A stretch of DNA of 32,000 nucleotides from Candidatus Saccharimonadota bacterium (GTDB taxonomy: Bacteria; Bacteroidota; Bacteroidia; Cytophagales; Amoebophilaceae): NCBI RefSeq assembly GCF_965196625.1, contig NZ_OZ239769.1, positions 930,001 through 962,000 of the forward strand. Direction: 5' to 3'. Positions 3,228-32,000 of this stretch are shown one piece after another. The number at the start of each line of letters is the position of its first letter. The stretch's first letter is position 1. The notes beneath the pieces were generated by a model. It was given only the letters and a program-made list of their open reading frames with translations, searched no databases and was not told the origin of the DNA. The position numbers and the translations under genes were made by a program.

Positions 3228-3308
3228 CTGGTAAAAGTGGAGTGTAAACAATTAATATAAATATCTATATAATTTACAGAATGTATAACAGATATAAAGT
3301 GTTTTACC

Positions 3309-3887: not shown

Positions 3888-4041
3888 CGCTTTAACTTGA
3901 CGAAATGAGAACAACCGCCCATTAAAACGATTTTTATTGTAAAATCTATAATAAAAATTTGCAAATTAAATATAAATATATTATACTAAAATGTTTTTTA
4001 GAGGAAAAGTATCTTAAAATATTTTAACTTTTGCTTAGCTT

Positions 4042-4710: not shown

Positions 4711-4718
4711 AGAGATCA

Positions 4719-6032
<1,314 letters not shown>

Positions 6033-6070
6033 TCATTTTACATATTAAGAAATAGATCATAAAGGCCAAC

Positions 6071-7621
6071 TCACCTAAAACGCAGCAAACTTTTCCCTGT
6101 CATTTCTTTAGGGGGTTGCAAGTCTAATAGAGCTAATAAGGTTGGTGCCACATCTGCTAAACTACCAGATATGGCTAGACTAGCAGGGCGGCCCATGTAA
6201 AGCAATGGAACAGGTGCTAGGGTGTGTGCGGTATGGGGTTGTTGTATCGCCTCATCATACATACATTCTGCATTGCCATGATCGGCTGTAATAAGGGCTT
6301 CTCCCCCTTGCTTTTGTAATGCAGCAATAATGCTTCCCATACAGCCATCTACAACAGCAATGCCTGCTTCCGTAGCCTGTTGATTGCCTGTATGGCCCAA
6401 CATATCCGGATTGGCAAAGTTGCAAATAATTACATCATAGGCCTTCTGTTCAATGGCTTTAACCACTTGATCGGTAACTTCTAGTATACCCATCTCAGGC
6501 ACTACATCATAGGTAGCTACCTTTTTAGAAGGAATCAGTAAACGGGTTTCACCAGGAAAGGGCGCTTCAATAGCTCCATTGAAAAAGAAGGTAACATGGG
6601 CATACTTTTCTGTTTCTGCAATACGCAGCTGGGTAAAACCCGCTTGGGCCAGGTAGGCACCTAAACCATTTTGTATAGACAAAGGCGGAAAAGCAATACG
6701 ACTAGGGATATCAGCTGCATAGGCGGTTAATGAAACAAAATCCCCCAAACGGGGGAAAGCCGAACGGTTAAAGTGTGCGCAATCAGGATCAGTTAAAGCA
6801 CGGCTAAGCTGTCTTACTCGATCTGAACGAAAGTTCATAAAAAAAACCACATCACCTGAATCAATCGTTATAGCTAGTTGACCTGGTGTATATACAGCAG
6901 TAGGTTGTACAAACTCATCGGTTTCACCCCGTGCATAAGCGGCTTGCAACCCGCTTAAAGCCGTTGAAGCACTATAAGTAGATTGACCGGCTACTATACA
7001 ATTATAAGCCGCTTGGGTACGCTCCCAACGATGGTCTCTATCCATTGCATAATAGCGACCAGTCAGGGAAGCAATGGTACCTAGCCCTATTTGGTCACAT
7101 TTGTTTTGCAATAATTGAATGGAAGCTGCGGCACTCATAGGTGGTGTATCACGCCCATCTAAAATGGCATGGATATAACAATTTTGTATAGCCTTTTGCG
7201 CACATAATGTTAATAAAGCAGCTATGTGGTTTTCATGGCTGTGCACGCCACCAGGCGACAATAGCCCGATTATATGAACAGATGTCTGCGCATCCTTTGC
7301 CTTGCGTAAGGCAGATAAAAATACTGTATTATTAAAGAAATCACCTGTTTCAATGGCTTTATTCAAACGGGTTAAATCCTGATCCAGCACACGACCTGCT
7401 CCAATCGTCAAATGGCCAACCTCAGAATTACCCATTTGGCCTTCTGGCAAGCCTACTGCATAGCCAGATGCATCCAATAGAGTATGCGGATAGGTCTGCA
7501 TGAAATGATCCCAATAGGGCGTCTTTGCCGCCGCAATAGCATTATAACGGGTTTGCGCAGCATGGCCCCAACCATCAAGGATCAGTAAAAGAATAGGTTT
7601 AGGTCTCTTGAATGTACGCAT
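6071..7621 (-). CDS. gpmI: 2,3-bisphosphoglycerate-independent phosphoglycerate mutase
   Basis: LLLILDGWG, GNSEVGHLTIGAGR, ILDGRDTPP, NFANPDMLGHTG, ITADHGNAE; 516 aa. Confidence 0.95.
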   Translation of the reverse strand: MRTFKRPKPILLLILDGWGHAAQTRYNAIAAAKTPYWDHFMQTYPHTLLDASGYAVGLPEGQMGNSEVGHLTIGAGRVLDQDLTRLNKAIETGDFFNNTVFLSALRKAKDAQTSVHIIGLLSPGGVHSHENHIAALLTLCAQKAIQNCYIHAILDGRDTPPMSAAASIQLLQNKCDQIGLGTIASLTGRYYAMDRDHRWERTQAAYNCIVAGQSTYSASTALSGLQAAYARGETDEFVQPTAVYTPGQLAITIDSGDVVFFMNFRSDRVRQLSRALTDPDCAHFNRSAFPRLGDFVSLTAYAADIPSRIAFPPLSIQNGLGAYLAQAGFTQLRIAETEKYAHVTFFFNGAIEAPFPGETRLLIPSKKVATYDVVPEMGILEVTDQVVKAIEQKAYDVIICNFANPDMLGHTGNQQATEAGIAVVDGCMGSIIAALQKQGGEALITADHGNAECMYDEAIQQPHTAHTLAPVPLLYMGRPASLAISGSLADVAPTLLALLDLQPPKEMTGKSLLRFR

Positions 7622-7666
7622 AGCATCTAAAAAGAAAGTTGAATGATGGATATATAGATCCCTTTC

Positions 7667-8410
7667 CTAGACTAAATTTTTAAGCCTACGCACCGCTTGA
7701 TCTTTCAAAAAGATCCATTTGCCACGAGGGATACGCTGCTTAGTAAGGTGGGCATAACCTACCCTATCCAATTTATCGACTAGATAACCCAAATGGCCAA
7801 ACATTCTTCTAATAATTCGGTTCTTACCCATATGGATCACCACACCTACTTGGGTTGGGTCTTGCGCTACTATAGCCACCCGATCTACCTTTGCCAGACC
7901 ATCTTCGAGTAAAAGGCCTTCTTGAAGAAGCTGTAAATGTTCAACTTGTATAGGCTTGTTCAACACTACATGATATAATTTTTCAACCCTGCTAGCAGGA
8001 TGCGACAACTTACGCGCCAAGTCCCCATCATTGGTTAGGAGTAATAGGCCTGTAGTATCATAATCCAAGCGACCAACGGGATAAATACGCTCAGCACAAT
8101 ACCTTTTGCTAATAAGATCTAAAACGGTTTTTCGGCCCTCAGGACCTTGAACGGTAGTAACATACCCCCTAGGCTTGTTTAAAAGTATATACCTTAACTT
8201 TTCTATATGCAAAGTAACACCTTTATACGCAACAACTGCATCGATGGGTATCCTGGTACCTACCTTTTGTACAACTGTGCCATTAACGGTAATACAACCT
8301 GATTGAATCAGTTGATCCGCCTCCCTCCTAGCACAAACACCCGCGTTACTTATAAACTTATTTAACCGTATTAAAGATGAAAGACAAGGCTTACTAGAAT
8401 AATCTTCCAT
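7667..8410 (-). CDS. Pseudouridine synthase, RsuA/RluB family, with N-terminal S4 domain
   Basis: S4-like IRLNKFISNAGVCARREADQLIQSGCITVNG and the catalytic motif GRLDYDTTGLLLLTNDGDL. Confidence 0.85.
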   Translation of the reverse strand: MEDYSSKPCLSSLIRLNKFISNAGVCARREADQLIQSGCITVNGTVVQKVGTRIPIDAVVAYKGVTLHIEKLRYILLNKPRGYVTTVQGPEGRKTVLDLISKRYCAERIYPVGRLDYDTTGLLLLTNDGDLARKLSHPASRVEKLYHVVLNKPIQVEHLQLLQEGLLLEDGLAKVDRVAIVAQDPTQVGVVIHMGKNRIIRRMFGHLGYLVDKLDRVGYAHLTKQRIPRGKWIFLKDQAVRRLKNLV

Positions 8411-12141: not shown

Positions 12142-14142
12142 ATGGTGCATCTTTCGATTTGGTGGCGGTATTGTTTATTTTTTTTAGTTTTTTTTCTACC
12201 ATTTAGCGCTAATGGCAATGAAAAAGCTGAAGATATTTTTGAAAAACCTGAAGAAGAAAAAGTTGAAGCAACTTCTACCTTTTTTATAACACCACGAGAT
12301 GTAAAACAAAACTACAGAAGGTATCACCGGATCGATCGCTCTGTAACCAAGATGGACCGTTTTACAGTTGCAGAACGACACAACTACAACTTTCAAGATC
12401 TTGGTAACCATTGGACAGCTGCTCAGCACATTTTTTATAAATTACCCCAACAGATAGGCGCAACCTATGGGCTCTCTGCCTACGATTTTTATTTTCAGCA
12501 CCCTGAAGACATACGTTACTATCATACACACAAAGCATATCTATATTTCAATGTTGTACTAGCCAATCTAAGTAGTTTTATATTTAATGCCTGCTATACC
12601 CAACGATTGCTTGAGAACTGGCACATAGGTACAAATTGGCAAGGTACCATGGCAGAAAATGAATGGCCACATAGCAAAGATGATAAGATTGTTAACGCCT
12701 CTCCACATTTTAATATTTTTACCCACCTCAAAAGCTCAGATGGGTGCTATCACTTATTTACGAGTTGGGCGAATATGCAGTATGTGACTAGAGAAACGGG
12801 TGGCGTACGCTCAGTACCCTCACGTAAAAAGCAATTTGAATTTCAGGAACAAAATCCAAGTAAGCGCTACAAATCTTCTTTTCCACTATTAGAAGAGGAA
12901 TACATGGAAAACAAAATTAACAAAGAAAGTCAATGCATCCATAAAGAACTTAGACGGAATTTTTACCTCTACCACCATTATGAGTTTAGCAAAACACTAC
13001 AATTGTATCATGAACTGCATGACAATCGTAAAACCAATCTATCCACTATTGAAAAACCAGATGCACCATTATTAAGTTTTATAGCTGCGCCTGATGCATC
13101 TTACAAAGATCGCCACAGTGCGGTAATGAAATCCCTTGGCAATGAAATAGGCATGAAAGGGGACATAGAACAACCCCATTTATTCTATTCACTACATTAC
13201 AGACACGAATACATTCGTTTAAATTGTGACTTCTCTAACCCTAAAGACATAGAACACAACCGTCCTTTACAAGAAGCAAAAAAAGAACACGAACACGAAC
13301 ATTACCTGGGTGGTAATACACGGTTGAACCTTTCCGAACATAGGAAACTTTGCATAGACGGAGCCTATCTTTTGCAAAAGGGAGGCTACCATAGACTCAA
13401 CCTAGCTTACGAAGAGAAATTCTTTAAAGTTTCTGGCCATACCATTAAGCATAAAGTACCCTATATAGTAGCTGGCTATAGCAGCAGGCTATGGAACAAA
13501 GATTTTATAGCACCATCTGCACGTGCAATAGATGCAGAGATATGGTATAATTGGCCCCATATCACCATCCATCCCATCCTATCTTTTAAAAAGATCAACA
13601 ACCATATCTTTTATACAAAAGCACTGTCAAATATAGATGACCATTGCATTGCTGAACCGATGCAGGCTACCACACCTATTTATCTACTTTCCTTAGAAGC
13701 AAACTTAAATTTTTGTTTCTTCTCTTATTTTCATTTTGACAACACCTTTACCATCCTAAAGGATCTAAGCAAAGAAAGCAAAATTTTTAAAGGCTATATC
13801 CCCCCCTATATCTATACAGGCCGGTATTATTATGCACACCAACCCTATGATAAAAAGATGGATATAGAAACAGGTTTAAATATACATTTTAAAGAGCTTT
13901 ATTATGGAGATGGCTACGATGTAATCGCGCAACAATTTTACCGCCAAAATAAATTCGCTGTACAAGGGAGACCTATTGTAGATATTTTTTGTAATGTGCG
14001 CATCAATAATCTAAAGCTCTCTTTTAAGTACAGCTACATCAACGCGTATTTTTATAAACCAGAAGCCTATTTTGCCACACCATTTTATCCTGGCCTAAAA
14101 AAAGCAGCTGATATTGGTATACATTGGTCTTTCTTTGACTAG
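12142..14142 (+). CDS. Large secreted protein, possibly an outer-membrane beta-barrel (putative-porin-like); function unknown
   Basis: Signal-peptide-like N-terminus (LFFLVFFLPFSANG). The protein is very Tyr/His/Phe/Asn-rich and has an aromatic C-terminal end (IHWSFFD). No family was firmly recognised. Confidence 0.45.
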   Translation: MVHLSIWWRYCLFFLVFFLPFSANGNEKAEDIFEKPEEEKVEATSTFFITPRDVKQNYRRYHRIDRSVTKMDRFTVAERHNYNFQDLGNHWTAAQHIFYKLPQQIGATYGLSAYDFYFQHPEDIRYYHTHKAYLYFNVVLANLSSFIFNACYTQRLLENWHIGTNWQGTMAENEWPHSKDDKIVNASPHFNIFTHLKSSDGCYHLFTSWANMQYVTRETGGVRSVPSRKKQFEFQEQNPSKRYKSSFPLLEEEYMENKINKESQCIHKELRRNFYLYHHYEFSKTLQLYHELHDNRKTNLSTIEKPDAPLLSFIAAPDASYKDRHSAVMKSLGNEIGMKGDIEQPHLFYSLHYRHEYIRLNCDFSNPKDIEHNRPLQEAKKEHEHEHYLGGNTRLNLSEHRKLCIDGAYLLQKGGYHRLNLAYEEKFFKVSGHTIKHKVPYIVAGYSSRLWNKDFIAPSARAIDAEIWYNWPHITIHPILSFKKINNHIFYTKALSNIDDHCIAEPMQATTPIYLLSLEANLNFCFFSYFHFDNTFTILKDLSKESKIFKGYIPPYIYTGRYYYAHQPYDKKMDIETGLNIHFKELYYGDGYDVIAQQFYRQNKFAVQGRPIVDIFCNVRINNLKLSFKYSYINAYFYKPEAYFATPFYPGLKKAADIGIHWSFFD

Positions 14143-14438: not shown

Positions 14439-16103
14439 TTATTTTTTTATATGCTCTTCATGTATTTCATAATCCCAACTATCTATCATCCTGGTTTCCT
14501 CATTGAAATTAATACCCAATAGTATAATCGCTTTTTGCCTGAGTAAATAAGGTTTATAATACCCGTTTGCTTTGATTTGTGCTAAGGCTATTTTCCCGTT
14601 GGATTTATACTTTATTTCTATAATATATATAGCTGTTTCTAATTCTAAAACAATATCTGACCTACCTTGGCTAGAAGCTGATTCACTATGCATCTGCATT
14701 TTTCTACCACCTAAAAATCCCAATCCTTGCAGCAGCATATGTAAATTGCTATGGTATTGTTTTTCTTGCTTGGTATCTATATAATAGGGAAGTGTGGAAA
14801 AAGCCGTATTGATATGTTCTATAAACATTTCAATTTTTTTATCAGCTAGTGCGCTTCTAATTCTATCCCGCTCTTGTAAAAAATAATCCTTTACACTCTT
14901 TTCCAAACTGGATTGTATACTCTTCTGAAAAGAGGCCTCTATTTCTTTGTTAGGGAATTTTAGGATATATAGCCCAGTAAAATCATCATAATTGTGAATG
15001 GTTAGATACCCCGTTTGAAACATTAGCGACTTTAAACTAATCTCACTCCTACTGCCTGTATACATTAGGTCTTCTCTAGTGGCTTCTATTTGCAAATTAT
15101 CTGACTGAAATTCAAACCTATCAGGATCTGCTAACATCTGATTAATCAGTATAGTTGGACTACCTGATTCATACCAGTAATTTTCTAATTCTCCACTCTT
15201 TAAAAACTTTAATGTAGACCAGGGATTATAGACACTTATACCATCCTTATGGAATCTATATCCATTGTAATGTGTTGCCATACGCTCCATTACTGCTGCT
15301 TTAGTGATTTTTTTATCATTATTTAGACTCCATTCTAAAGCGATACTTTCTAAATAGACTGGAAAAGTAGATAAGATTTCATCTTGGGTGTACCCAAACA
15401 TCGCATCAACATTTTTGAAAATCGTAATATCGTCTAAATGATTGGCCCCTGAAAATACATCGGATAAACTAAATTTGCTTACGCCAGTGATAAAGGTGAG
15501 TTGAAAGTATTCATTGAGTGACTTTAAAGTCATAAAAAAATCTTTCATCACTTTTATATTGGCCTTTTCTAGGTCAGAGCCTTTGGTTAGATGAACTATA
15601 GGTGCATCGTATTCGTCTATAAGGACTACTATTCTAGCTTCATAATGCAATGATTTGATCGCATTACTTGAACGGCTTAAGTCCGCTAACTGAATGACTA
15701 AATCTTCCAAAATATCCTTTACAGTGTGCGCTTCTATTACTAGGTCATATAGAGATGCTATTTTTTTTAAGGCTCTTTTGATCGATTCTTTTAGTTCTTC
15801 AGGTGTGTCATTGGTCAATCTAGAGTGATCCAGTTTAATCACGGGATATTTCTTCCATTCATATCCATTTTCTGGTTTACCTATATAGCAATCTTTAAAA
15901 ATTTCTTTTTCTCCGCTAGCTATAGTAGCCAGTGTATTGATGAATAGTGATTTCCCAAATCTGCGAGGCCGGGCTATAAATACAGGATTTTCTTTTTCTA
16001 TTAGTTCTTGAGCATACCGGGTTTTATCTACATAATAGCCTGTTCTGATAACCCTTTCAACATCTGAGTATCCAATAGGCAGTGCATATATCTTGCGCAT
16101 CAT
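14439..16103 (-). CDS. AAA-ATPase_like (PF09820-type) plus PD-(D/E)XK nuclease (PDDEXK_9-type) protein, intact paralog
   Basis: MMRKIYALPIGYSD..., Walker A ARPRRFGKS, Walker B VVLIDEYDAP, and C-terminal GRSDIVLE...YIIEIKYK. The ORF is open up to 16139; the start at 16103 was chosen by alignment with the paralog N-termini. Confidence 0.85.
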   Translation of the reverse strand: MMRKIYALPIGYSDVERVIRTGYYVDKTRYAQELIEKENPVFIARPRRFGKSLFINTLATIASGEKEIFKDCYIGKPENGYEWKKYPVIKLDHSRLTNDTPEELKESIKRALKKIASLYDLVIEAHTVKDILEDLVIQLADLSRSSNAIKSLHYEARIVVLIDEYDAPIVHLTKGSDLEKANIKVMKDFFMTLKSLNEYFQLTFITGVSKFSLSDVFSGANHLDDITIFKNVDAMFGYTQDEILSTFPVYLESIALEWSLNNDKKITKAAVMERMATHYNGYRFHKDGISVYNPWSTLKFLKSGELENYWYESGSPTILINQMLADPDRFEFQSDNLQIEATREDLMYTGSRSEISLKSLMFQTGYLTIHNYDDFTGLYILKFPNKEIEASFQKSIQSSLEKSVKDYFLQERDRIRSALADKKIEMFIEHINTAFSTLPYYIDTKQEKQYHSNLHMLLQGLGFLGGRKMQMHSESASSQGRSDIVLELETAIYIIEIKYKSNGKIALAQIKANGYYKPYLLRQKAIILLGINFNEETRMIDSWDYEIHEEHIKK

Positions 16104-16398
16104 TTTATCTTTTTTGATTTCTTTTTCTCTCTCTTTCATTGATTTCGTATGTTATCATACTTATATCTTAGTAGCAAATATAAAGCGGTGTTGTCTAATT
16201 CCTCTTCATTAGGTGCATAGATAAATGATAGTAATGAGGTTATTGGCCTATGACTATTCTTAAATTTCTTTGTACACGTGATGAATACATCATGGACTTT
16301 AGCTCCATTTAATACCCGAACACCTTTTGAAAAATTCCCTACAACTACGTACCTTAGTATAGTGAATGTTTAGTTTAAACCATTCCTTTTAACCGCTT

Positions 16399-20592: not shown

Positions 20593-21477
20593 ATGGCACA
20601 TCTTAAAGAAGTAGTAGACCGAATCAGTTTGATCGCCTTTACCCAACAAATCACCAAAGCGATGAAGATGGTATCTGCTTCGAAACTGTATAAAATCCAA
20701 CAGCTTCTCTTACCCCTAAGGGCATATACCACACAATACATCACCATATTGGATGCTGCCTTACAAAATATAGATAAAGCTGATCTAGTTCATCCCTTGA
20801 CAAGGCAAACAGCAGGCGGACGGGTGCTGTTGATAGTAGTTGCTTCCAATCGGGGGTTATGTGGTGCATTTAACAAAAACATACTTAAAGCAGCTTATGA
20901 GGAGGTTACCACCCGCCAACAAGAAGCCTCCGCTACTGTAGAGGTGCTTGTTATTGGCAAGAAAGCCTATCAGTTTTTTAAAAAGTCTAATATACCAATT
21001 ATAGAGACCTATGTTGACCTTCTATCAAAATCAAATGATGAGGCAAGTAGTGAACTGACTAAATATTGTATAGAAGCTTTTCAAAAAAATAGGTATAATG
21101 AAATTCTATTGGCTTATACTGCATTTAAAAATTCAGCCAAACAAGAAGTAACCATCTTCCCCTTTCTACCCTTTGTACCTGATCTAGAAACACACTCCCC
21201 CCCTACTCGACCGCTTTATTATATTTATGAGCCTTCCCGCCAGCTATTGATCGCACAGCTTATTCCTGAGATACTCAAACATAAAATCATGCATATGCTG
21301 GTTGAATCTAGTGCAAGCGAATATGCTGCCAGAATGGCCACCATGAGTCAAGCAACTGATAATGCCGATGAGCTTTTAAAAGCACTACGCATCAGTTATA
21401 ATAGGACTAGACAAGCATTAATTACCAGTTCTCTAGCAGAAATTACAAGTGGCGCAGAAGCTTTAGCAGAAGCTTAA
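20593..21477 (+). CDS. atpG: F-type ATP synthase subunit gamma
   Basis: N-terminal ITKAMKMVSASKL and C-terminal NRTRQALITSSLAEITSGAEAL. Confidence 0.93.
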   Translation: MAHLKEVVDRISLIAFTQQITKAMKMVSASKLYKIQQLLLPLRAYTTQYITILDAALQNIDKADLVHPLTRQTAGGRVLLIVVASNRGLCGAFNKNILKAAYEEVTTRQQEASATVEVLVIGKKAYQFFKKSNIPIIETYVDLLSKSNDEASSELTKYCIEAFQKNRYNEILLAYTAFKNSAKQEVTIFPFLPFVPDLETHSPPTRPLYYIYEPSRQLLIAQLIPEILKHKIMHMLVESSASEYAARMATMSQATDNADELLKALRISYNRTRQALITSSLAEITSGAEALAEA

Positions 21478-21489
21478 AAGTGGGCACAC

Positions 21490-21531
21490 TGTATCTATTC
21501 AGCTGTGTTGATCTTTTAATGTATCTATTCA
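21490..21531. repeat. Perfect 12-bp direct repeat TGTATCTATTCA x2 with 30-bp period
   Basis: Copies at 21490-21501 and 21520-21531, in the 97-bp spacer between atpG and the M16 remnant. Confidence 0.6.
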
Positions 21532-21544
21532 CGCACATGGTTGA

Positions 21545-22213
21545 GGCTTAAGGCCTTGCCATACAAAAGAGCAAGTGCTTTGCCTGGCTCATCAAGGTCC
21601 TTTTGTAGTGGAACAACCAACTACAGCCCAAGGCAATGGCATCATCTTAACGATTGACCAAGGCCCTTTTTCCTTTGAAAAACAAGCAGCACAAGCCATT
21701 CTATCGATCGCTTTACAAGAAGCATTTTTTACAGCCCTCCGAACCAAGCAAAAAACAGGCTATATTGTTCAAAGTGTAGATCAAGAAATAGAACAAAGAT
21801 TGTTTCAAAAATTTGCTGTGCAATCAAACTCCCATCAATGTCAAGATCTTCTTTACCGTTTTGAGCTTTTTCTAGAGGATTTTCTTCAAGAAATGCCCCA
21901 TGATATTTCTATTGAACGTTTTGAAAAACTCCGGGCAAACGATCTCCTTACCCTAGAACATCTATGCCCTAACTTACAAGATAAAGCGGTTTGCTTAGAT
22001 GCGTTTGCTTTTGAACGCAATGGGGACTTTAAGTGGCTAGAAAAGAAGATAGAAGCAGCAAAAGCGCTCACCTACGAACACTTTTTACAATACGCTAAAA
22101 CCTTTCTCTCTAGGAAAAACCGAAAACGGCTTGCCATTGCCATATCAGGAAAACTTCCAGAAAATCAGAACTTTTCGTACAAATCGCTATCTGCAAGCGA
22201 GATCTTAAAATAG
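21545..22213 (+). pseudogene. C-terminal remnant (last ~210 aa) of an M16A insulinase/pitrilysin-like peptidase
   Basis: FFTALRTKQKTGYIVQS, VQSNSH, RFELFLEDFL, IERFEKLRAN and NRKRLAIAISG align with my recalled C-terminal domain of insulin-degrading-enzyme-like proteins (...FNTLRTKEQLGYIV...). The frame opens right after a stop at 21542-21544. There is no ATG and no N-terminal catalytic HxxEH domain. Full-length family members are about 900+ aa. Confidence 0.8.
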
Positions 22214-22463
22214 GGAAAATATCTTACCAAAGCAGATTTTTAAAAAGTGTAATAAAAAACCAGGGATTAGCTAGTTTTATTATGTTTTTCATACTAAAAT
22301 CACGTTTACAGCCTAGTCTTCTTGGAAATTTCCCCTTTATTTAATTTATTGCTTCTAGTAAGAGGTCTAGCATTTTTTGAATGGGTTTACCCAATATACT
22401 ATGGGCTGTGCCTTTATTGAAATCAGCGCAGGCTCAATCATATTTTTTTATTCTTTTGTCTCC

Positions 22464-24257
22464 ATGGCTACTCCTATACCAGGTGATTTTATTAAGTACG
22501 CAATAAAAGTAGGGTCTAAAACCCTAGATGCAAGCTACCCGATACAATCTATAATAGTGGATAAAAGAATCAATAAGATCCCTTATGCAAAAATAGTTGT
22601 GCATGACGGTGACCTTCAAGCACAAACCTTTTCTATAGCCAATGCTAAAATCTTTTCCATTGGCGCTACGGTTGCCATACGATCCGGTTATGGAGACAAA
22701 TTAGAACAGCTATTCGAAGGTGTAGTGGCCAAATTGGCGATTCAGTCTCGGTCAACAGGATCATCTACCTTAACCGTAACCTGTAGGGATCCTGCCTATA
22801 AAACTACCCTTGCACCTAAAACGGCGCATTTTGTAAAAATCAAGGATAGTGACCTTCTAAAAAAAATTTTGAGTGGTTACAGTGGCTTAAATAGTAAAAT
22901 TGAAGGAACCACTATTGTACACGAAAATATTTCCCAACATGAAATATCAGATTGGGACTTCTTAAATATCCGCGCTGAGGCAAATGGACAAATTGTAGTG
23001 GTCAATGATGGAACCATTTCCGTTAAAAAACCAAAAGCAACTGGAAAAGATGCTTTTACCTATATCTATGGTGTTGATTTTATTGACTTTAATGCTGAAA
23101 TAGATGCAAAAGATCCATGGTCAACTGCTACTGCCCTCTCTTGGAATAGTAGCAAACAAAATAGGGTAGCTGAAAAGGCAAGTGACCCAGGAGAACAGTC
23201 TATGGGAGACCTCTCCTATAAAAAATTAACCAGTGCGGCCCAGCCAGGTAATGTGGCTATATCCCACGGTGGCGTATTAGATCCTCTGGAAATTAAAACG
23301 TTGGCTACTGGCTTACTCAACCGAAGCAGAATCGCTAAAATAAAAGGTAGTGTTACGGTTTCAGGGAATGCTGCATTGCGCCATGATGGTCTTATCACCA
23401 TTCAAAAAGGGGCAAACCACTTTTCAGGGGATGCTTATGTATCTGGCATTCAGCATATCATATCAGATGGAAACTGGCAGACTACCTTAACCTTAGGACT
23501 AGATGCACAACGCTACATGCACAAATACCATGACATTGGTGCACTTCCAGCAGCGGGCATGATGCCGCCTATGCATGGGTTGCAGCTCGGCATTGTCAAG
23601 CAAATTACACAGGACCCTCAAAAGCATAACCGCATTTTGGTACATTTGCCTTTGGTACAAGACAAACCAAAAGAAGGCATTTGGTGTCGTTTAGCCTCAT
23701 TTTATGCTACGCAAGCTGCAGGTGCTTTTTTTATTCCAGAACTAGAGGATGAAGTGGTCGTAGGTTTTATCAATGATGACATTCGATTTCCTATTATTCT
23801 AGGCTCGCTGCATAGCAGTAAACATGCAGCACCTAAAACCGTTGATCCTAAAAATCTTTTTAAATCTTTTGTCTCTAAGGAAAAATTAGAATTGAATTTT
23901 CATGACGATAAAGAAGGGCCTGAAATCATTATTAAAACACCTAAAGGAGGGCTTATTCAAATATCAGATAAGAAAAAAAGCATTGAGCTGGTAGATCAAA
24001 ATGGCAATAAAGTAGTTTTAAGTAATGACGGCATTAATCTAACCAGTAGCAAAGATATCAATTTAAGTGCAAGGGCTAGTATCACTATAAAATCAGGCAA
24101 AGACGTTGTAATAAATGGTACACAAAACATAAACTTGAAAAGTATGAACATCAATGCACAAGCCTCTATGAAGGCCATTTTAAGTGGCAATGCCAGTACA
24201 GAAGTAAAATCTGGTATGGCTACCATTATCAAAGGGACTACCGTACTGATTAATTAA
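22464..24257 (+). CDS. VgrG-like spike/baseplate hub (gpD-like N-domain, gp5 OB-fold, C-terminal beta-helix); Afp8/Pvc8-type
   Basis: GLQLGIVKQITQDPQKHNRILVHLPLV...GIWCRLASFYA...FIPELEDEVVVGFINDDIRFPIILGSLHS (Phage_base_V/gp5 OB-like). The C-terminus has repetitive beta-helix segments (KVVLSNDGINLTSSKDINLSARASITIKSGKDVVINGTQNINLKS). The start was chosen at MATPIPGDF; the ORF track extends to 22377. Confidence 0.85.
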   Translation: MATPIPGDFIKYAIKVGSKTLDASYPIQSIIVDKRINKIPYAKIVVHDGDLQAQTFSIANAKIFSIGATVAIRSGYGDKLEQLFEGVVAKLAIQSRSTGSSTLTVTCRDPAYKTTLAPKTAHFVKIKDSDLLKKILSGYSGLNSKIEGTTIVHENISQHEISDWDFLNIRAEANGQIVVVNDGTISVKKPKATGKDAFTYIYGVDFIDFNAEIDAKDPWSTATALSWNSSKQNRVAEKASDPGEQSMGDLSYKKLTSAAQPGNVAISHGGVLDPLEIKTLATGLLNRSRIAKIKGSVTVSGNAALRHDGLITIQKGANHFSGDAYVSGIQHIISDGNWQTTLTLGLDAQRYMHKYHDIGALPAAGMMPPMHGLQLGIVKQITQDPQKHNRILVHLPLVQDKPKEGIWCRLASFYATQAAGAFFIPELEDEVVVGFINDDIRFPIILGSLHSSKHAAPKTVDPKNLFKSFVSKEKLELNFHDDKEGPEIIIKTPKGGLIQISDKKKSIELVDQNGNKVVLSNDGINLTSSKDINLSARASITIKSGKDVVINGTQNINLKSMNINAQASMKAILSGNASTEVKSGMATIIKGTTVLIN

Positions 24258-24308
24258 TAGCATTATTTTGTAGATTTTTATGCCTACATCACTATATAAT
24301 ATAACACT

Positions 24309-24617
24309 ATGCCACCTGCAGCTGTATTGTTAAATAAACATATGTGTCCTATGGTCACGCCAGGTGTTCCACCTGTGCCGCATGTGACTGGAGGGATGAT
24401 TATGTTGGGTTGCCCCACTGTTTTAATAGGGAAGTTCCCTGCAGCAAGAATGGGAGATACAATGCTTTGTAATGGGCCTCCACCCCATCCGGATACCATT
24501 ATAAAGGGATCTTTAACTGTGTTAATAGGTAAAAAACCAGCGGCACGCTTAGGAGATACAACAGGCATGGGTGGAATGATATTACAAGGGTGCCCTACGG
24601 TAATGATTGGTGGGTAA
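24309..24617 (+). CDS. PAAR-domain spike-tip protein (Afp10-type), with no extension domain
   Basis: Two literal PAAR motifs, GKFPAARMGD and GKKPAARLGD, in a Gly/Pro/Cys-rich 102-aa protein. Confidence 0.9.
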   Translation: MPPAAVLLNKHMCPMVTPGVPPVPHVTGGMIMLGCPTVLIGKFPAARMGDTMLCNGPPPHPDTIIKGSLTVLIGKKPAARLGDTTGMGGMILQGCPTVMIGG

Positions 24618-24623
24618 AACCCG

Positions 24624-25052
24624 ATGCAACGAATAAAAAGCGAAGATATGGAAGATGACCACAATTTCTTGGGTATAGGATGGAAATTTCCACCTACTTT
24701 TAACCACCATAGCAGTACAGTAGAAATGGTAAATGGATTAAACGATATCAGAGAAAGCTTAATCATCTTAATGCGTACTAGAGTAGGTGAGCGCATTGTA
24801 GAAGAGAAATATGGTTGTGATTTAACGCCACTTGCCTTCCAACAATTGGATCTTAATTTAGAAACCTTTATGGTCAATAACATCAAGCAAACCATTACAG
24901 AACATGAACCCAGAGTGGAGGTACTTGATGTGCAATTGACTACACCAAATGATGGAGAAGGGGCTATTGATATTAATGTAAGTTATAAGGTTAAAAAACT
25001 AGATATAGAAGAAACGATCCAATATAGCTACCATCCTATTTTTAATAAATAG
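24624..25052 (+). CDS. gp25/GPW-family baseplate wedge protein (Afp9-type)
   Basis: FLGIGWKFP...IRESLIILMRTRVGERIVEEKYGCDL...ITEHEPRVEV. It starts 6 nt after the PAAR stop. Confidence 0.88.
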   Translation: MQRIKSEDMEDDHNFLGIGWKFPPTFNHHSSTVEMVNGLNDIRESLIILMRTRVGERIVEEKYGCDLTPLAFQQLDLNLETFMVNNIKQTITEHEPRVEVLDVQLTTPNDGEGAIDINVSYKVKKLDIEETIQYSYHPIFNK

Positions 25053-25116
25053 TCGTTCTCCATTCATGCTTTATGAACTATAACTTTAAAATCAGCATTA
25101 TTTATAGATAAAGACT

Positions 25117-27603
25117 ATGGAAAATACCCCACTAGAACTGGATTATCCTTTTTTAAAGGCGCAAGGGATAGCCTACATTCAGCAGTTAGCAGGCAAGAAA
25201 TGGACCGACTATGGAGACCATGACCCTGGCATTACCATTTTAGAAGTGCTTTCTTTTGCGATCATGGATCTAGAATATAGAACCAACTTCTATATAGAAG
25301 ATATATGGGCTAAGGATCCTGATGCAGCAGCCAATCCCAATGAACAACCCTTCTATAAAGCTGAAGAGATCCTTCCTTGCAATCCACTAACCAAGTGGGA
25401 CTTTTTAAAGATTGTATTGGATGTTCCAGGAGTAAAAAATGCCAATATTTTTTTAAGTGATGGCCCAAAAGAAATTAAAGGGGGTTATAAGATTTTTGTC
25501 GATGTAGAAGGACGCATCAGCCATACGCCCCAAGAAAAAGAGGTATTAGATTTAGTTAAGAAAAGATTATATGCCCAAAGAAATCTATGTGAAGATTTCT
25601 TTCTGATTCAAACCATGGAAACACTACCTATTAGTGTGAAAGCAACCTTTGAGTTGTCCAATTGTTTGGCTTATGAAGAAGGAGAGACCATTATTGCGCA
25701 TATATTGTTTGCGTTTCAAGATTTTTTTACACCACGTATTCCTTTTTATAGCATCAGTCAATTACTAGAAAAAGGTAGAACCATAGATCAAATCTTTACA
25801 GGACCACTTTTAAAACAGGGCTTTATAGATGAAGAAGAGTTAATTTATCTGAAGAATAGAGCCAGAATCTACGTAATTGAACTCCTAGAACAGGCCACTA
25901 AAATTGCAAATATCAAAAATGTATTAAACTTTGAACTCTTTATTCATGAAGAAAATACAAGAACAGCTAGCGTAACTGTACCCATATTACCAGATCGATC
26001 TTTAGTGCTTGATATTGCACAAAGTGAAATTGTGCTCTATTACAATGGTTTGCCCATCAATACAGATTGGGGAAAAGTTATTGATATGCTTGAAGATATA
26101 AAAGGAAGGGGCACATTAACAAAAGCCTACTTACAAGAGGAAAATGTTTTTGTTTTAGAAGGAAACTATAGACATTTAGAAGATCATGTTTCCATACAAC
26201 AAGACTTTCCTTTACTCTATAATGTAGGGCATGAAGGGTGCACTCCATCTGAAACACCTGAAAACCAAGCTAAAGCAAAACAATTAAAAAGCTACTTAAT
26301 GTTTTTTGACCAGCTTTTTGCTAATTATATGGGTCAATTGTCTAATATCAAACACACCATGGCCATCTACAGCGAAGACTATAACAAGCCTAATGGCCGC
26401 TTGCCTTTAGATGTACCTAGAATGGATACCATTATTAAGCAACCTACTAAAGAGACTGATCCAGGTAACGACCTTGAGTTTGTAGTACAAAGAAAGTACT
26501 TAGATTTGAAAAAAGAAATAATGGATAAGTCCTGTGAAGATAAAGACCAAGGCGATGAAACCTCGCAAGCGTACCGCGCTTATATCCATAAAGCATTAGA
26601 AAGTGATATTAGAAGCCTAGATAAACGGTCAAGACTATTAGACCATTTATTAGCTTATTTTTCAGAACGATTTACCATCTACTCGCTGCATCTTTATCCT
26701 AAAAATGAAGAAATGCAATTGGATGAGTTTAATAAAAATAAAGCACTTTTTTTAAAGGATTATATTGATATCAGTAAAAATAGAAACCGAGCGGCCTATA
26801 TAACAGCCAATCATATAAACAACTGGATCCATCATATTCCATCTGGTTTTAAGCGACGCATTTACCGGAACCTAGGCATTAAAAGTTTAGACAAAAAGCT
26901 TTTCCACCAGGTGGTTAAAAATAGTATGTACTTAGAAAAAAAGTCCACACAATATAATTTGGATATCTTTCTAGGCAAAAATTCCCAAACAGAACATGAT
27001 GATATTTTTATGTTTAGAGGAAAATATGAAAACATGCAATCTTTGGTTATGTCCTATGGCATCAATGAACACCATTACAACATTATCAAAAAAGCCAATG
27101 GTAGCTATAGCATTCTCCTTTATGTGGATAAAGCAAAAAAGAATACGATTGAACTAGTTACTGAATCGGTTATAGACATTGAGCAAGCAGAGGCTATCGT
27201 ACAAAAAAGTGTAGAAGTGTTTAGGTCATTAAACAAAGCATGTGAAGGATTTCACTTAATAGAACATATTCTGCTTAGAAGTGACGATACATTAAACATG
27301 GAGCAAGACGCCTATTCCTTTATAATGACAATGATTTTTCCTGCATGGCCAGCCAGATTTCAACAATCTTCATTTAGGCATGCTGTAGAGGAAATGGTTG
27401 TAACCGAAGGCCCAGCCCACATACTTACCAATATTTTATGGTTAGATTTTGAAGATATGGAAACCTTCGAGAAGGCCTATAAATCATGGATACAGTTAAA
27501 AACTGATGCTAAATCTAATAAAGCAGAAATAGACGCAGCAGCCAAAGTATTAATGGATTTTATAGAACCTTATAATAATAAAAAAATAGATTTATGTGGA
27601 TAA
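25117..27603 (+). CDS. Baseplate wedge protein, BaseplateJ/gp6-like (Afp11-type)
   Basis: The N-terminal WTDYGDHDPGITILEVLSFAIMDLEYR motif is one I recall as typical of gp6/BaseplateJ homologues of phage-tail-like systems. Its position after the gp25-like gene fits. I cannot assign the remaining ~700 aa from memory. Confidence 0.7.
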   Translation: MENTPLELDYPFLKAQGIAYIQQLAGKKWTDYGDHDPGITILEVLSFAIMDLEYRTNFYIEDIWAKDPDAAANPNEQPFYKAEEILPCNPLTKWDFLKIVLDVPGVKNANIFLSDGPKEIKGGYKIFVDVEGRISHTPQEKEVLDLVKKRLYAQRNLCEDFFLIQTMETLPISVKATFELSNCLAYEEGETIIAHILFAFQDFFTPRIPFYSISQLLEKGRTIDQIFTGPLLKQGFIDEEELIYLKNRARIYVIELLEQATKIANIKNVLNFELFIHEENTRTASVTVPILPDRSLVLDIAQSEIVLYYNGLPINTDWGKVIDMLEDIKGRGTLTKAYLQEENVFVLEGNYRHLEDHVSIQQDFPLLYNVGHEGCTPSETPENQAKAKQLKSYLMFFDQLFANYMGQLSNIKHTMAIYSEDYNKPNGRLPLDVPRMDTIIKQPTKETDPGNDLEFVVQRKYLDLKKEIMDKSCEDKDQGDETSQAYRAYIHKALESDIRSLDKRSRLLDHLLAYFSERFTIYSLHLYPKNEEMQLDEFNKNKALFLKDYIDISKNRNRAAYITANHINNWIHHIPSGFKRRIYRNLGIKSLDKKLFHQVVKNSMYLEKKSTQYNLDIFLGKNSQTEHDDIFMFRGKYENMQSLVMSYGINEHHYNIIKKANGSYSILLYVDKAKKNTIELVTESVIDIEQAEAIVQKSVEVFRSLNKACEGFHLIEHILLRSDDTLNMEQDAYSFIMTMIFPAWPARFQQSSFRHAVEEMVVTEGPAHILTNILWLDFEDMETFEKAYKSWIQLKTDAKSNKAEIDAAAKVLMDFIEPYNNKKIDLCG

Positions 27604-27636
27604 CCGATATCCACATCCATACCCTATGGTATGGAT
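27596..27636. terminator. Two adjacent perfect hairpins between convergent genes (candidate bidirectional terminator)
   Basis: GTGGATA-accga-TATCCAC (27596-27614, overlapping the stop codon) and ATCCATACC-ctat-GGTATGGAT (27615-27636). An A7 run follows at about 27654, which is a T-run on the minus strand. Confidence 0.45.
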
Positions 27637-27667: not shown

Positions 27668-29338
27668 TTAGCGTATAGGCAACCGTTTATAAAATACAAA
27701 ACATCCGGCATCTTTTATATAAATGATATCTTTATAACTTTCTAAAAGCGCTCGATCACTTTTGTAAAGAATAAAAAAACAAGGTTTATCAATGGCCCCT
27801 TCTAAGCGCCAGGCTATATCTGGTTGTGTTAATCTTTTAGGCTGATCAGCATAAAAAAGAGGTGCAGCTGATTTAAAACCAATGGTCGTAAGGTATAACT
27901 CCTTTCCTTTGCATGCTTTACAAAAAGCCACCATTTCTTTTTGCGTATAAGCCTCAACCTTAGGTGCTATACGAACGAAAAATAATGCCAATGTGCAAAT
28001 ATTGATGCACATAAAGATGCTGATAAAAGGCACCCAACGAAACTGCAAAAGGCAATAATACGCTGCGCCTATACCTATCATATAGAGCAAGCCTGGTAGA
28101 CCATCCCAGTAACTCCATACAACAGGTAGCCCCAATGCATCCTGTATATATTGATTTTTAATAAAAGAAAGCCATAGTGATTTATGTAGCATTACCCAAG
28201 GCATAATGGTTAAAGCCCCACCTATAACTAGGCCAATGACTAAAAATAGAGATACAATTCCTAGATAGATATATTTTCTATTGTAGATCCGTTGATGAAA
28301 AAAATTAGCTGCCAAAAAGGTTATGGGGAAATAAGCCATCGAACTATAATGCACAATCTTTGTACCCACTAGTGTAAAAATAACTAAGATGGTCACCAGT
28401 AAAGCTTGCATATTAGCTAAAAAATAATCATCCCTACAAAATATTTTTTCTTTCAAAAAGCAGATAGCAAAGAGAGCACTTGGAAAGCACCCCAAAAAAA
28501 GGACTACATAGTGATAGTACCAAGGTTGTGCATGGGTAGCAACAGGTTGTTGACACAGCAATAGATGGTAGGCCCAAAACGCTTTAATAAAGATCCATCC
28601 ATTAGCGGCAATTTCTGGAATAAGCCAACAAGATAGAACGACTATTGCGACAAAAACAGTTAAAATAAGCAGCTTCAACTGCACGACCTTTCCGCTAAAC
28701 CAAGTGTAAGATAAAGATAAGGTAGCCAGGGGTATGATAAAGGCCATAGGCCCTTTGGCCAATAGCGCGCAACCTATACATAGCCCTGCAAGACCATACA
28801 ACCATTCTTTAGATGGCATGGTTGCATTTGATAAACAATAGATAGCCAGCAGCAAGAAATAATTAAAAAAAGGATCTATAATGCCTGATTTAAAATAAAA
28901 ATGAGGTAAAAAAGCAGTTGCATATAAGCACATCCATAACAAACCGAACCATCTCCCCTTGTATTGCTTGCCTATGCAGTATAGCGTTGCCAGGGTCAAT
29001 AATCCACACAGCAAGTTAGGAAAACGGGCACCGATCTCATTAATGCCCCAAAGATGCATACTAGCCGCTTGTAGCCAAAAGAAAAGCGGCGGTTTTTCAT
29101 AAAGTGGCTCAAAATTAAAGTTTACTTGACCATAGTGGCCCGTACGCATCATTTCTCTAGTGATCTCAGCAAAATAGAGTTCATCTAAATCAAATAGATG
29201 CACCGATCCTATGCCCCATGCAAAAATGCATCCAAAACCAATTAAACAATAAACAACCCTACTATTTTTTAATCGGCAACCCCTTTCCATACCTGTATAA
29301 CAAAAAATAGATAGAACGGTCCAACCAATCTGCCGCAT
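27668..29338 (-). CDS. ArnT-like undecaprenyl-phosphate-sugar-dependent glycosyltransferase (GT39/GT83, PMT_2-type), polytopic membrane protein
   Basis: DLDELYFAEITREMMRTGHYGQVNFNFEPLYEKPPLFFWL matches the ArnT-type N-terminal loop (DE..YAEI.REM...G.W....YFEKPPL.YW as I recall it). About 12 hydrophobic segments follow. The start may be 29290 (MERG...). Confidence 0.8.
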   Translation of the reverse strand: MRQIGWTVLSIFCYTGMERGCRLKNSRVVYCLIGFGCIFAWGIGSVHLFDLDELYFAEITREMMRTGHYGQVNFNFEPLYEKPPLFFWLQAASMHLWGINEIGARFPNLLCGLLTLATLYCIGKQYKGRWFGLLWMCLYATAFLPHFYFKSGIIDPFFNYFLLLAIYCLSNATMPSKEWLYGLAGLCIGCALLAKGPMAFIIPLATLSLSYTWFSGKVVQLKLLILTVFVAIVVLSCWLIPEIAANGWIFIKAFWAYHLLLCQQPVATHAQPWYYHYVVLFLGCFPSALFAICFLKEKIFCRDDYFLANMQALLVTILVIFTLVGTKIVHYSSMAYFPITFLAANFFHQRIYNRKYIYLGIVSLFLVIGLVIGGALTIMPWVMLHKSLWLSFIKNQYIQDALGLPVVWSYWDGLPGLLYMIGIGAAYYCLLQFRWVPFISIFMCINICTLALFFVRIAPKVEAYTQKEMVAFCKACKGKELYLTTIGFKSAAPLFYADQPKRLTQPDIAWRLEGAIDKPCFFILYKSDRALLESYKDIIYIKDAGCFVFYKRLPIR

Positions 29339-29969
29339 TACAATAAATGGAAACCGTATAAACTACTATGGTAGAGATGGTACCAATCAAAGCACCTATA
29401 TAGACATCTGTATAAAAATGTTGACAAAGATAAATTCTTGAATAAGCAACCAACAGGGCTAGCCCCAATAAGATGACACTGCAGATTTTTTGCTTGCTTC
29501 TAGACAACAGCTGTATAACCGATATCAACACAAAGATGGTAGCAGAGTGGCCTGAAGGGAAGCTTAAATCCCGTAATAAGGGCACACCATCTACTAGGTG
29601 CAAGGATGCATCTACAGGAAGCAAGGCTATAGGCCTTAACATACAGGTAAAAAAAACACGTTTCAACAATTGCACTACAATAGACATAGAAACAAAACTT
29701 CCCCCCATAATGATCAGCTTTCTACAACTTACACGAAACACGGCAGCTATCAATAAAAGGGATAGATAGGTAACCCCATCACCTAACCAAGTTAAATAAG
29801 GTGCTACACAATCTGCTACAGGATGGTGCCACTGCTTGAGTAGCACCAAAAAAGCAACTTTATCCAATAGGAAAAAAGGGAAGATACCGATAAGCAACAG
29901 AGCAGTAAGCAGGTAAAAAAACAACTTGTTTTCATACCAAATCATTCTAACAGCTGTAATCTTTTTCAT
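29262..29969 (-). CDS. PAP2-family membrane phosphatase (LpxE/LpxF-like candidate lipid A phosphatase)
   Basis: The three PAP2 motifs are present: KRVFFTCMLRP, PSGH and SRIYLCQHFYTD. The start was set at MKKITAV; the ORF track's 30068 start would overlap the upstream gene. Confidence 0.85.
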   Translation of the reverse strand: MKKITAVRMIWYENKLFFYLLTALLLIGIFPFFLLDKVAFLVLLKQWHHPVADCVAPYLTWLGDGVTYLSLLLIAAVFRVSCRKLIIMGGSFVSMSIVVQLLKRVFFTCMLRPIALLPVDASLHLVDGVPLLRDLSFPSGHSATIFVLISVIQLLSRSKQKICSVILLGLALLVAYSRIYLCQHFYTDVYIGALIGTISTIVVYTVSIYCNAADWLDRSIYFLLYRYGKGLPIKK

Positions 29970-29997
29970 GCAATTTTTTGAAACTGTAGATGATAAT

Positions 29998-30591
29998 TCA
30001 GAACGAATAACCAATATAGAGATAGCTAAATAACAGATTAAAGCCTCCTGTAGAACTGTGTTTCCCATTTTTAGGTGAGAAAGTAGTTTTCATTCCAACG
30101 GTAATCCCTTTTAAATTACCCATGTTACTTAAATGATAATTTATTCCTATGGAAGGAAATGGCATCAATGAAGTATGATATTCTGCAGTTTCCCAATCTT
30201 GAGCGCTATATGCACTAATGTATAAATCCCCATGCAATGAAAAATATTTATTTACATAATATCTATAGTTTCCACCTAACCCTACTGCGAAGGCTGCCCT
30301 ATCATTACAATCTTTAAAAGTTATAGCCATTGCAGACCAGGCAAAAGAACTACCATCTTCTTTGTTGCGGTTATCATAGACTATCCCGATGCCTGGATTA
30401 ACTACAAAAGCGCCATTTTTATCTAAGCCACGTGGAGCTTTTCGATAGGCTGGGTTAGAAGCATTAGCTCGTATATGATAGGATATTCCTGGAATAAATA
30501 AACCTATTTCACCCCCAAGCGCATTCATTGAAAACAGAGCCACTGATAGGAGCATAACCCCTATTTTTTTTAAAAACGTACTGTTAAGCAT
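29998..30591 (-). CDS. Small outer-membrane beta-barrel, PagP-like (candidate lipid A palmitoyltransferase)
   Basis: A signal peptide is followed by LFIPGISYHIR, which I align with recalled E. coli PagP LYIPAITWHAR. AMAITFKDC aligns with AMAFKDS, MPFPSIGINY with LPLASVGYG, and the end is aromatic (IGYSF). The size is similar (197 vs 186 aa). The alignment was made from memory, not computed. Confidence 0.6.
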   Translation of the reverse strand: MLNSTFLKKIGVMLLSVALFSMNALGGEIGLFIPGISYHIRANASNPAYRKAPRGLDKNGAFVVNPGIGIVYDNRNKEDGSSFAWSAMAITFKDCNDRAAFAVGLGGNYRYYVNKYFSLHGDLYISAYSAQDWETAEYHTSLMPFPSIGINYHLSNMGNLKGITVGMKTTFSPKNGKHSSTGGFNLLFSYLYIGYSF

Positions 30592-30648: not shown

Positions 30649-32000
30649 CTAATTGCTCATAGAAACCAAAAACTCTTCATTATTACGTGTACCCCGCATT
30701 TTCTTCAGTAGAAAATCCATTGCTTCTGTAGAGCTCATATCTGCCATGATGTTACGCAATATCCAGATGCGCGCCAGCTCCTCTTTTCCAATCAACAGCT
30801 CTTCATGTCTGGTTCCAGAAGCAGGTACATCAATAGCTGGATAAATACGTTTATTGGCCAACTTGCGATCCAATTGCAATTCCATATTACCGGTACCTTT
30901 AAATTCTTCAAAAATCACCTCATCCATCTTAGAGCCTGTATCAATAAGGGCCGTAGCCAAAATGGTCAATGACCCCCCATTTTCTACATTACGGGCAGCA
31001 CCAAAAAACCGTTGTGGTTTATGCAGGGCATTGGCATCAATACCGCCAGAAAGTATCTTTCCAGAAGAAGGGCTAACCGTATTGTGTGCCCGAGCGAGTC
31101 GGGTAATAGAGTCCAATAGAATCACAACATCCCGACCACATTCTACCATTCTCTTTGCTTTTTCTAAAACAATATTAGAAACTTTTACATGCCGCTCAGC
31201 CTGTTCATCAAAGGTTGAAGCAATTACCTCTGCTTTTACATTTCTAGCCATATCCGTCACCTCTTCTGGGCGCTCCCCAATGAGTAGCACAATCAAATAA
31301 ACCTCTGGGTGATTGGATGCAATCGCATTAGCGATCTCTTTTAACAGCACCGTTTTACCAGTTTTAGGTTGCGCTACAATCATACCACGCTGCCCCTTAC
31401 CAATAGGAGAAAACAAATCCATAATGCGGGTTGAATATTGACTGGCTCCATTGGAAATATGCAACTTATCATGTGGAAAAAGCGGCGTAAGGTGTTCAAA
31501 AGGAATGCGATTGCGCCCCTCCTCTGTGGTTACACCATTCATACAAATGACCTTTAAAAGGGCAAAGTATTTTTCTCCTTCTTTGGGTGGACGTATTTTA
31601 CCACGAATGGTATCGCCCGTTTTTAGGTTAAACAATTTGATTTGAGAGGGAGATACATACACATCGTCTGGACTGGCTAAATAGTGATAATCAGATGAAC
31701 GTAAAAAACCATAGCCATCTTGCATAATCTCTAATACACCTTCGCATTCAATAGTAGTATCCAAGCTATGCAATATACTTGCTTCTTTTTTACTCTTTTC
31801 AAACGAGGGGGGGGCCTCCTTTGGTTCTTTAGTGGAGACAACACGTTCAGTTACAACTGATTTTTCTGACTCTGCAGCCTCACTGCGCTTACCTTGTAGA
31901 TTAGATTCCGCTTGTGCTTCTACTGCTCTAGCCTTCACATAACCCCTCTTGGGCAATACAGGTGGGATGCCTTCTTTTGCAGGCAATGGTGTAACAAGCG
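30649..32000 (-). CDS. rho: Transcription termination factor Rho, 5' end off the window
   Basis: GYGFLRS, CSD-like RNA-binding region, P-loop [19 protein letters not shown], and C-terminal RIYPAIDV. The frame stays open to position 32000, so the Lys/Glu/Ser-rich N-terminal extension continues beyond the window. Confidence 0.95.

Follow-up and report, generated by a model that had tools for sequence, protein, structure and literature searches.

The four-gene module and its protein families

The window analysed here, a stretch of 32,000 nucleotides (positions 930,001 to 962,000 of contig NZ_OZ239769.1), holds at 22464-27603 four intact, closely packed open reading frames (ORFs) on the forward strand, which encode proteins of 597, 102, 142 and 828 aa and are separated by gaps of 51, 6 and 64 nt. 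A first-pass annotation of this DNA had described the same four tight, co-oriented frames as genes for the spike and inner baseplate of a contractile injection system (CIS), and the description agrees with the ORF list as well as with the profile and PDB matches given below. The genes encode, in order, the VgrG/Cis8 (Afp8-like) spike protein (22464..24257; orthologue of CAHE_0763 and Aasi_1080), the PAAR/Cis10 spike tip (24309..24617; CAHE_0762 and Aasi_1081), the gp25-like/Cis9 baseplate protein, an initiator of sheath assembly (24624..25052; CAHE_0761 and Aasi_1082), and the Cis12/Afp12 wedge protein (25117..27603; CAHE_0760 and Aasi_1083). For VgrG an alternative TTG start at 22377 would give 626 aa; we set the start at ATG 22464 (597 aa, MATPIPGDF...) because the Cardinium orthologues begin at that position. 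The gp25 protein may comprise 134 instead of 142 aa, since its orthologues begin at an internal methionine (MEDD...) that corresponds to 24648 in the window. An antisense ORF of 203 aa (24284-24895), lying opposite PAAR and gp25, is taken as spurious.

The first three proteins are recognised by profiles as well as by structures. VgrG matches Phage_base_V (3e-19) and, over the cut-off, TIGR01646 vgr_GE (7.7e-42), has full-length matches to All3320 (2e-118), the SalCis VgrG (1e-117) and the AlgoCIS spike (2e-99), and aligns end to end with Cis8 proteins of 589-597 aa. The PAAR protein matches PF05488 (3.7e-17) and, across its full length, SalCis10 (5e-31), while gp25 matches PF04965 (3.7e-16), Alg9 (1.6e-25), Pvc9 (2.5e-19) and gp25 of T4 (1.7e-7). 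Neither alignments to solved homologues nor domain searches revealed an effector extension on VgrG or PAAR; the latter consists of the PAAR domain only, in line with the lack of a toxin extension noted earlier. Three of the four families proposed in the first-pass annotation (VgrG, PAAR and gp25) were hence recovered by profile searches, and the fourth, Baseplate_J for the 828-aa protein, was not: this protein has no Pfam match at E <= 0.01, Baseplate_J (PF04865) included.

When searched with phmmer against PDB sequences, the 828-aa protein was instead found to match solved Cis12 proteins, namely All3315 of the Anabaena tCIS (3e-78), Alg12 (2e-70), SalCis12 (3e-40), Pvc12 (3e-18) and Afp12 (1e-14). 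The match to SalCis12 also takes in the C-terminal residues 640-816, and all strong PDB matches are Cis12 chains. The protein is 100% identical to WP_419241272.1 of the Cardinium endosymbiont of Nabis limbatus; the next Cis12 matches are from Cardinium strains (90-60% identity), several of them labelled 'Afp12-like', followed by Amoebophilus at ~44%. These sequence matches firmly place the 828-aa protein as the Afp12/Cis12 wedge protein. Its reading as a gp6 or Baseplate_J homologue (Cis11) was rejected on the lack of PF04865, on PDB matches to Cis12 only, and on the identity of Cis11 in Cardinium hertigii cEper1 as CAHE_0037.

Alg12, Pvc12 and Afp12 each contain one gp6-like and one gp7-like part, the former being N-terminal, and form the wedge together with Cis11, the Baseplate_J protein (PMC8894135, where the wedge roles of Alg11, Alg12 and Alg9 in AlgoCIS are described). 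The earlier 'gp6' label is therefore right in so far as a gp6-like part is present, and wrong as to Baseplate_J and the identity of the protein, which is Cis12. The same work corrects the statement that a gp7-like wedge protein is missing: Cis12 carries the gp7-like part, so the gp7-like wedge is present and the wedge piece absent here is Cis11.

A canonical type VI secretion system (T6SS, subtypes i-iii) baseplate was not indicated. The gp25 protein scored 25 bits against TssE TIGR03357 (cut-off 53), VgrG stayed under the TIGR03361 cut-off, and no match to TssF or TssG was found among the window proteins; the TssJLM membrane complex was not searched for genome-wide.

Conservation, selection and the other parts of the machine

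At least five other Cardinium genomes carry the four genes side by side in this order, and at least six genomes have all four as intact frames. Their surroundings differ, and are sometimes made up of insertion sequences (IS). In two Cardinium genomes of 1.26 Mb (L025 and L026), the ATP synthase region is on one side of the module and an Ank-repeat gene on the other; the strain of Sogatella (L027) has an aminoacyl-tRNA synthetase gene and an HD_4 gene in these places, and C. hertigii (L028 and L029) an rve transposase and MscL. In Cardinium of Tipula unca (L002), DDE transposases are present on either side. When the window was compared by blastn with L027, L028 and L002, homology with these differently flanked strains was found to span ~22447 (17 nt before the ATG of VgrG) to ~27616, and the stretch 22447..27616 on the forward strand thus delimits, together with the gene tables, the block that is kept as a unit.

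The block is separated from the sheath genes at a point shared by all Cardinium sheath loci examined. A contig scan with an Amoebophilus sheath query gave 22 sheath loci, the Nabis limbatus genome not being among them. All seven Cardinium loci (L007-L012 and L015) and two loci from metagenome-assembled genomes of Amoebophilaceae (L006 and L014) stop at the Afp7-like gene, and no VgrG was found in the 5-7 kb past this gene in any of these nine loci. In the Amoebophilus-like loci L001, L003 and L004 the sheath cluster runs directly into VgrG-PAAR-gp25-Cis12, and in L001 and L003 onward into the tape-measure gene; outgroup loci are also contiguous at the junction of Afp7-like gene and VgrG. On the complete chromosome of the Tipula unca strain the spike block lies at ~0.16 Mb and the sheath block at ~1.06 Mb. 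Because all the Cardinium sheath loci examined and this complete chromosome show the split, we regard it as old and shared and not as an artefact of assembly. A misassembly hiding the missing genes was likewise rejected, as complete chromosomes of other strains separate the modules in the same way. Moreover, two DDE transposases of equal length (426 aa, DUF772 and DDE_Tnp_1; 3646-4926 and 12756-14036 of L002) bracket the spike module of the Tipula unca strain, and a DDE_Tnp_1_3 transposase (15236-16111 of L011) follows the Afp7-like gene of its sheath module, which fits an IS-mediated shuffling of CIS blocks.

Pairwise Nei-Gojobori comparisons of the window genes with four Cardinium strains gave ratios of nonsynonymous to synonymous substitution (dN/dS) of 0.08-0.10 for VgrG, 0.03-0.08 for gp25, 0.08-0.14 for Cis12 and, apart from one comparison taken up below, 0.01-0.10 for PAAR. 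The control genes AtpA, Rho and AtpG gave 0.084, 0.068 and 0.146, and PMT_2 (0.21) and PAP2 (0.30) lie above the CIS genes. The module is under purifying selection, with a constraint equal to that on core housekeeping genes. The first-pass annotation had taken intact frames amid pseudogenes as a sign of maintained function, and values of mostly 0.03-0.14, like those of AtpA and Rho, sustain this view. The module might also be a decaying relic of a lost contractile system whose genes evolve neutrally, and other remnants in the window (a truncated Mutator transposase, the stump of an M16 peptidase and a truncated DUF1703 gene) as well as the lack of a sheath or tube gene within 22 kb upstream or 4 kb downstream would fit such a decay. 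However, the frames intact across genomes, dN/dS at the level of ATP synthase alpha and Rho, a sheath gene on the same chromosome (see below) and transcription of these genes in cEper1 (PMC5698495) effectively refute the relic, which we find scarcely credible.

No other CIS gene was found in the 32-kb window by Pfam on all larger ORFs, and tblastn of the window with cap, sheath, tube, DUF5908, Afp7-like and tape-measure proteins gave no match, just as the first-pass annotation had seen no sheath, tube or other CIS genes nearby. Its label of an 'orphan' module is nevertheless misleading, because the same chromosome carries a sheath gene. The protein WP_419241498.1 ('phage tail sheath family protein') of the Nabis limbatus Cardinium, which came from a cluster recovered with a Cardinium sheath protein as query, shares a contig of 1,158,289 bp with the Cis12 of the window. 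In seven other Cardinium loci, Afp7-like, tube and cap genes adjoin the sheath gene.

A machine made from dispersed loci, as already suggested by comparison with Cardinium-like symbionts, is what the literature describes, and the window is itself from Cardinium. In C. hertigii cEper1, 16 genes like those of the antifeeding prophage (AFP) are distributed over five regions (Penz et al. 2012, PMC3486910). Table S5 of that work lists CAHE_0763, CAHE_0762, CAHE_0761 and CAHE_0760 as VgrG, PAAR, gp25 and Afp12-like, orthologous to Aasi_1080-1083, and a sheath-tube set CAHE_0456-0463 orthologous to Aasi_1072-1079, while Cis11 and the fibre are CAHE_0037 and CAHE_0036, the ATPase is CAHE_0409 and the Afp14-like protein CAHE_0118 (PMC3486910). 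All 15 AFP-like genes were found transcribed in cEper1 by RNA sequencing (Mann et al. 2017, PMC5698495). The module CAHE_0763-CAHE_0760 belongs to the same genus and shares with the window the genes, their order and the separation from the sheath-tube region, with 76-84% identity in VgrG and Cis12; the window strain differs in its host (Nabis limbatus) and in its flanks (ATP synthase and M16 remnant; PMT_2, PAP2 and Rho).

The distance from the sheath operon, and flanks that move independently of the module, could also suggest a stand-alone spike and baseplate complex, or one that serves another machine and is independent of the sheath locus. The probability of this is negligible in our view, since gp25 and Cis12 have no known role without sheath and Cis11 (PMC8894135), these four genes continue the sheath and tube cluster in Amoebophilus-like genomes, and the literature gives one CIS gene set for each Cardinium genome, save for a duplicated region in cPpe (PMC3486910, PMC12342168, PMC6387759). 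The earlier idea of a module used by something else hence finds no support.

Compared with known systems, the window proteins fit the T6SS subtype iv (T6SS-iv), or AFP-like CIS, of Amoebophilaceae (CIS clade Ib): they are orthologous to Aasi_1080-1083 in the same order, and outside Cardinium it is Amoebophilus proteins that they match best (44-68% identity). In Amoebophilus asiaticus (Aasi_1072-1083; Penz 2011; Bock et al. 2017) the order is likewise VgrG-PAAR-gp25-Cis12, and Cis11 is likewise encoded outside the main cluster. There, however, the four genes come straight after those for cap, sheath, tube and Afp7-like protein, a link that is broken in Cardinium, and in Amoebophilus sp. 36-38 the tape-measure gene comes next after the four. 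Two statements of the first-pass annotation must be revised here. A. asiaticus does not keep all of its genes in one long operon, as separate loci encode Cis11 and the fibre, the ATPase and the Afp14-like protein (PMC3486910). Nor is a PAAR gene ahead of gp25 unusual: the order VgrG-PAAR-gp25 recurs in Amoebophilus and in the CIS loci of the free-living Draconibacterium, Raineya and Maribellus, and is therefore the usual one in this Bacteroidota CIS clade.

More distant systems share the proteins and differ in arrangement. In AlgoCIS (Algoriphagus), the Anabaena tCIS and SalCis, Cis8, Cis9, Cis10 and Cis12 are recognisable by sequence (E 1e-17 to 1e-118), which supports the same architecture of spike and wedge. 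Each of these gene sets forms one contiguous cluster in which Cis11 separates gp25 from Cis12, and the machines act extracellularly or anchored to thylakoids. The Serratia Afp and the Photorhabdus virulence cassette (PVC), both of CIS clade Ia, share Afp8, Afp9 and Afp12 homologues that are far more distant (E 1e-12 to 1e-33); they differ in having the order 8-9-10-11-12 in one operon, neighbouring toxin cargo genes and released particles.

As AlgoCIS and SalCis, which are extracellular, are among the closest solved homologues, and as sequence alone cannot tell the two modes of action apart, we also considered a released CIS of the AFP, PVC or AlgoCIS kind, with particles freed by lysis instead of a cell-anchored T6SS-iv. 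We judge this very unlikely. The nearest relatives outside Cardinium are the Amoebophilus proteins (here at 44-46% identity), whose T6SS-iv is membrane-anchored in situ according to cryo-electron tomography (Bock 2017, as cited in PMC12342168 and PMC8894135), electron micrographs of Cardinium show intracellular parallel arrays (PMC3486910, PMC12342168), and an obligate intracellular, maternally inherited symbiont would gain little by lysis. The AFP-like genes have been tied to fibril arrays in electron micrographs by Penz et al. 2012 (PMC3486910), and a 2025 review states that every sequenced Cardinium has T6SS-iv homologues, probably forming the columns after which the genus is named, and attributes the microfilament-like arrays to this system (PMC12342168).

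With a probability of about 0.93, we interpret the module as the spike and inner-baseplate operon of the Cardinium T6SS-iv (AFP-like CIS, clade Ib), a machine built from dispersed operons. Several points weigh against this interpretation. The dN/dS of PAAR reaches 0.35 against the Sogatella strain, though over just 102 codons. The Cis11, tube, ATPase and tape-measure genes of the Nabis limbatus strain are presumed from other Cardinium genomes and the 2025 review, and the assembly of a machine in this strain is likewise presumed. Effectors are listed as still unknown in the same review (PMC12342168). No promoter was found in a scan for promoters of the sigma-70 type and terminators, which gave results at the level of shuffled sequences, the consensus being one that does not describe Bacteroidota promoters. 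Finally, DNA homology with distant strains begins in blastn just 17 nt before the ATG of VgrG.

Flanking genes and other features of the window

On the 5' side the module is preceded by genes for the ATP synthase subunits a, b, delta, alpha and gamma and then by a C-terminal M16/PqqF-like peptidase remnant of 212 aa (21575-22213, forward strand), in accordance with the ATP synthase operon and dead peptidase gene described earlier. In the closest relatives, L025 and L026, the interval of the M16 stump measures ~3.4 kb (3504-7071 in L025), and in L025 it holds ORFs of 296 and 148 aa, a Peptidase_C48 gene (Ulp/SENP-like, a eukaryote-type protease) and an ORF of 184 aa. The window has lost this content, as blastn homology skips from window position 21477 to 22275.

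The 3' side is convergent and encodes a PMT_2 membrane glycosyltransferase, a PAP2 phosphatase, a small outer-membrane beta-barrel protein and Rho. Between Cis12 and the PMT_2 gene, which comes 64 nt past Cis12 on the opposite strand, a stem search found two adjacent perfect 9-bp hairpins (27594-27616 and 27615-27636), so that the module does end at a double hairpin and a convergent membrane gene as first reported. A run of T residues follows the hairpins on the reverse strand only; the double hairpin is probably a terminator, likelier that of the convergent PMT_2 gene, and possibly bidirectional. The genes of the ArnT-like PMT_2 (27668-29338, reverse) and PAP2 (29262-30068, reverse) overlap by 77 nt as listed. 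PMT_2, PAP2 and Rho are also adjacent in the Sogatella strain, where HD_4, SSF and DAO sit between them and Cis12. The Rho ORF (30649-31986, reverse) has 445 aa, a TTG start and no match to Rho_N, whereas its Sogatella orthologue has 508 aa including Rho_N; since DNA homology ends at window position 31964, the N-terminal region may have diverged or the start may be mis-set.

In L025 and L026, the Ank-repeat gene is placed directly 3' of Cis12 on the same strand (12694-13599 and 12589-13599, respectively) and is not present in the window; its place beside the spike operon makes it a candidate for a cargo or effector gene. Ank-repeat and Peptidase_C48 genes are among the neighbours of the module in CP101107.1. 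Pairs of resolvases also occur downstream of the module in these two loci. In the window, a serine resolvase (2616-3251, reverse) is located near a fragment of a Mutator-family transposase (126-839, forward), which covers only profile positions 164-378 and is N-terminally truncated, the two representing mobile-element debris typical of Cardinium genomes.

Two DUF1703 paralogues, combining AAA-ATPase_like (PF09820) and a PDDEXK_9 nuclease (PF08011), are encoded at 1042-2547 and 14439-16139, both on the reverse strand. In the former, which is probably truncated, only ~38 nuclease-domain residues remain. An expansion of the family is known from the Cardinium strains cCpun, cSfur and cPpe, and it has been discussed as a possible secreted effector (PMC6387759). 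The region 5001-8000, with enolase and phosphoglycerate mutase (iPGM), has a G+C content of 0.43-0.45, compared with 0.31-0.40 in the remaining window.

Proposed assembly and significance for Cardinium

By homology to solved baseplates and by the work on Amoebophilus (as cited in PMC12342168 and PMC8894135), a VgrG trimer with a single PAAR cap would form the membrane-piercing spike on which the tube polymerises. Cis12 is expected to pair with Cis11, encoded elsewhere, into six baseplate wedges, and six copies of gp25 on the ring of Cis11-Cis12 wedges would start the polymerisation of the sheath. The outer gp7-like part of Cis12 is a proposed site for the lateral contacts between baseplates by which the machines would be ordered into arrays. 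Contraction of the sheath would then push tube and spike across the envelope of the bacterium and into the cytoplasm or a membrane of the host cell. The operon for cap, sheath, tube and Afp7-like protein, the pair of Cis11 and fibre, the ATPase and the tape-measure-like gene would be contributed by other chromosomal loci. For this strain, both the assembly from dispersed operons and the mode of anchoring are what we infer from its relatives.

In this interpretation, the ancestral cluster was contiguous, as it still is in Amoebophilus-like genomes. Its break at the junction of Afp7-like gene and VgrG dates to the ancestor that Cardinium shares with its nearest relatives and was probably brought about by IS-mediated rearrangement; purifying selection has since held the four-gene block intact. 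The split is retained in every Cardinium locus examined. It is nonetheless unlikely that the separation of the spike and baseplate operon from the very highly expressed sheath-tube operon was adaptive instead of a neutral by-product of IS-driven scrambling. If it were adaptive, the uncoupling would allow spike and wedge units to be produced in small numbers relative to sheath subunits, and each lineage would supply its own promoter, because upstream homology ends 17 nt before the start of VgrG.

The arrangement is already known: gene content, dispersed layout, conservation and transcription were published between 2012 and 2025, and novelty is low because the same arrangement has been in the literature since 2012 and was described again several times. 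Added here are one more strain and a modest amount of quantitative support, namely purifying selection at the level of housekeeping genes, precise boundaries of the block and a breakpoint common to the clade. The T6SS-iv is regarded as the main route by which Cardinium delivers effectors into host cells, possibly including the factors of cytoplasmic incompatibility, and as the presumed delivery route its genes therefore matter for research on this symbiosis.

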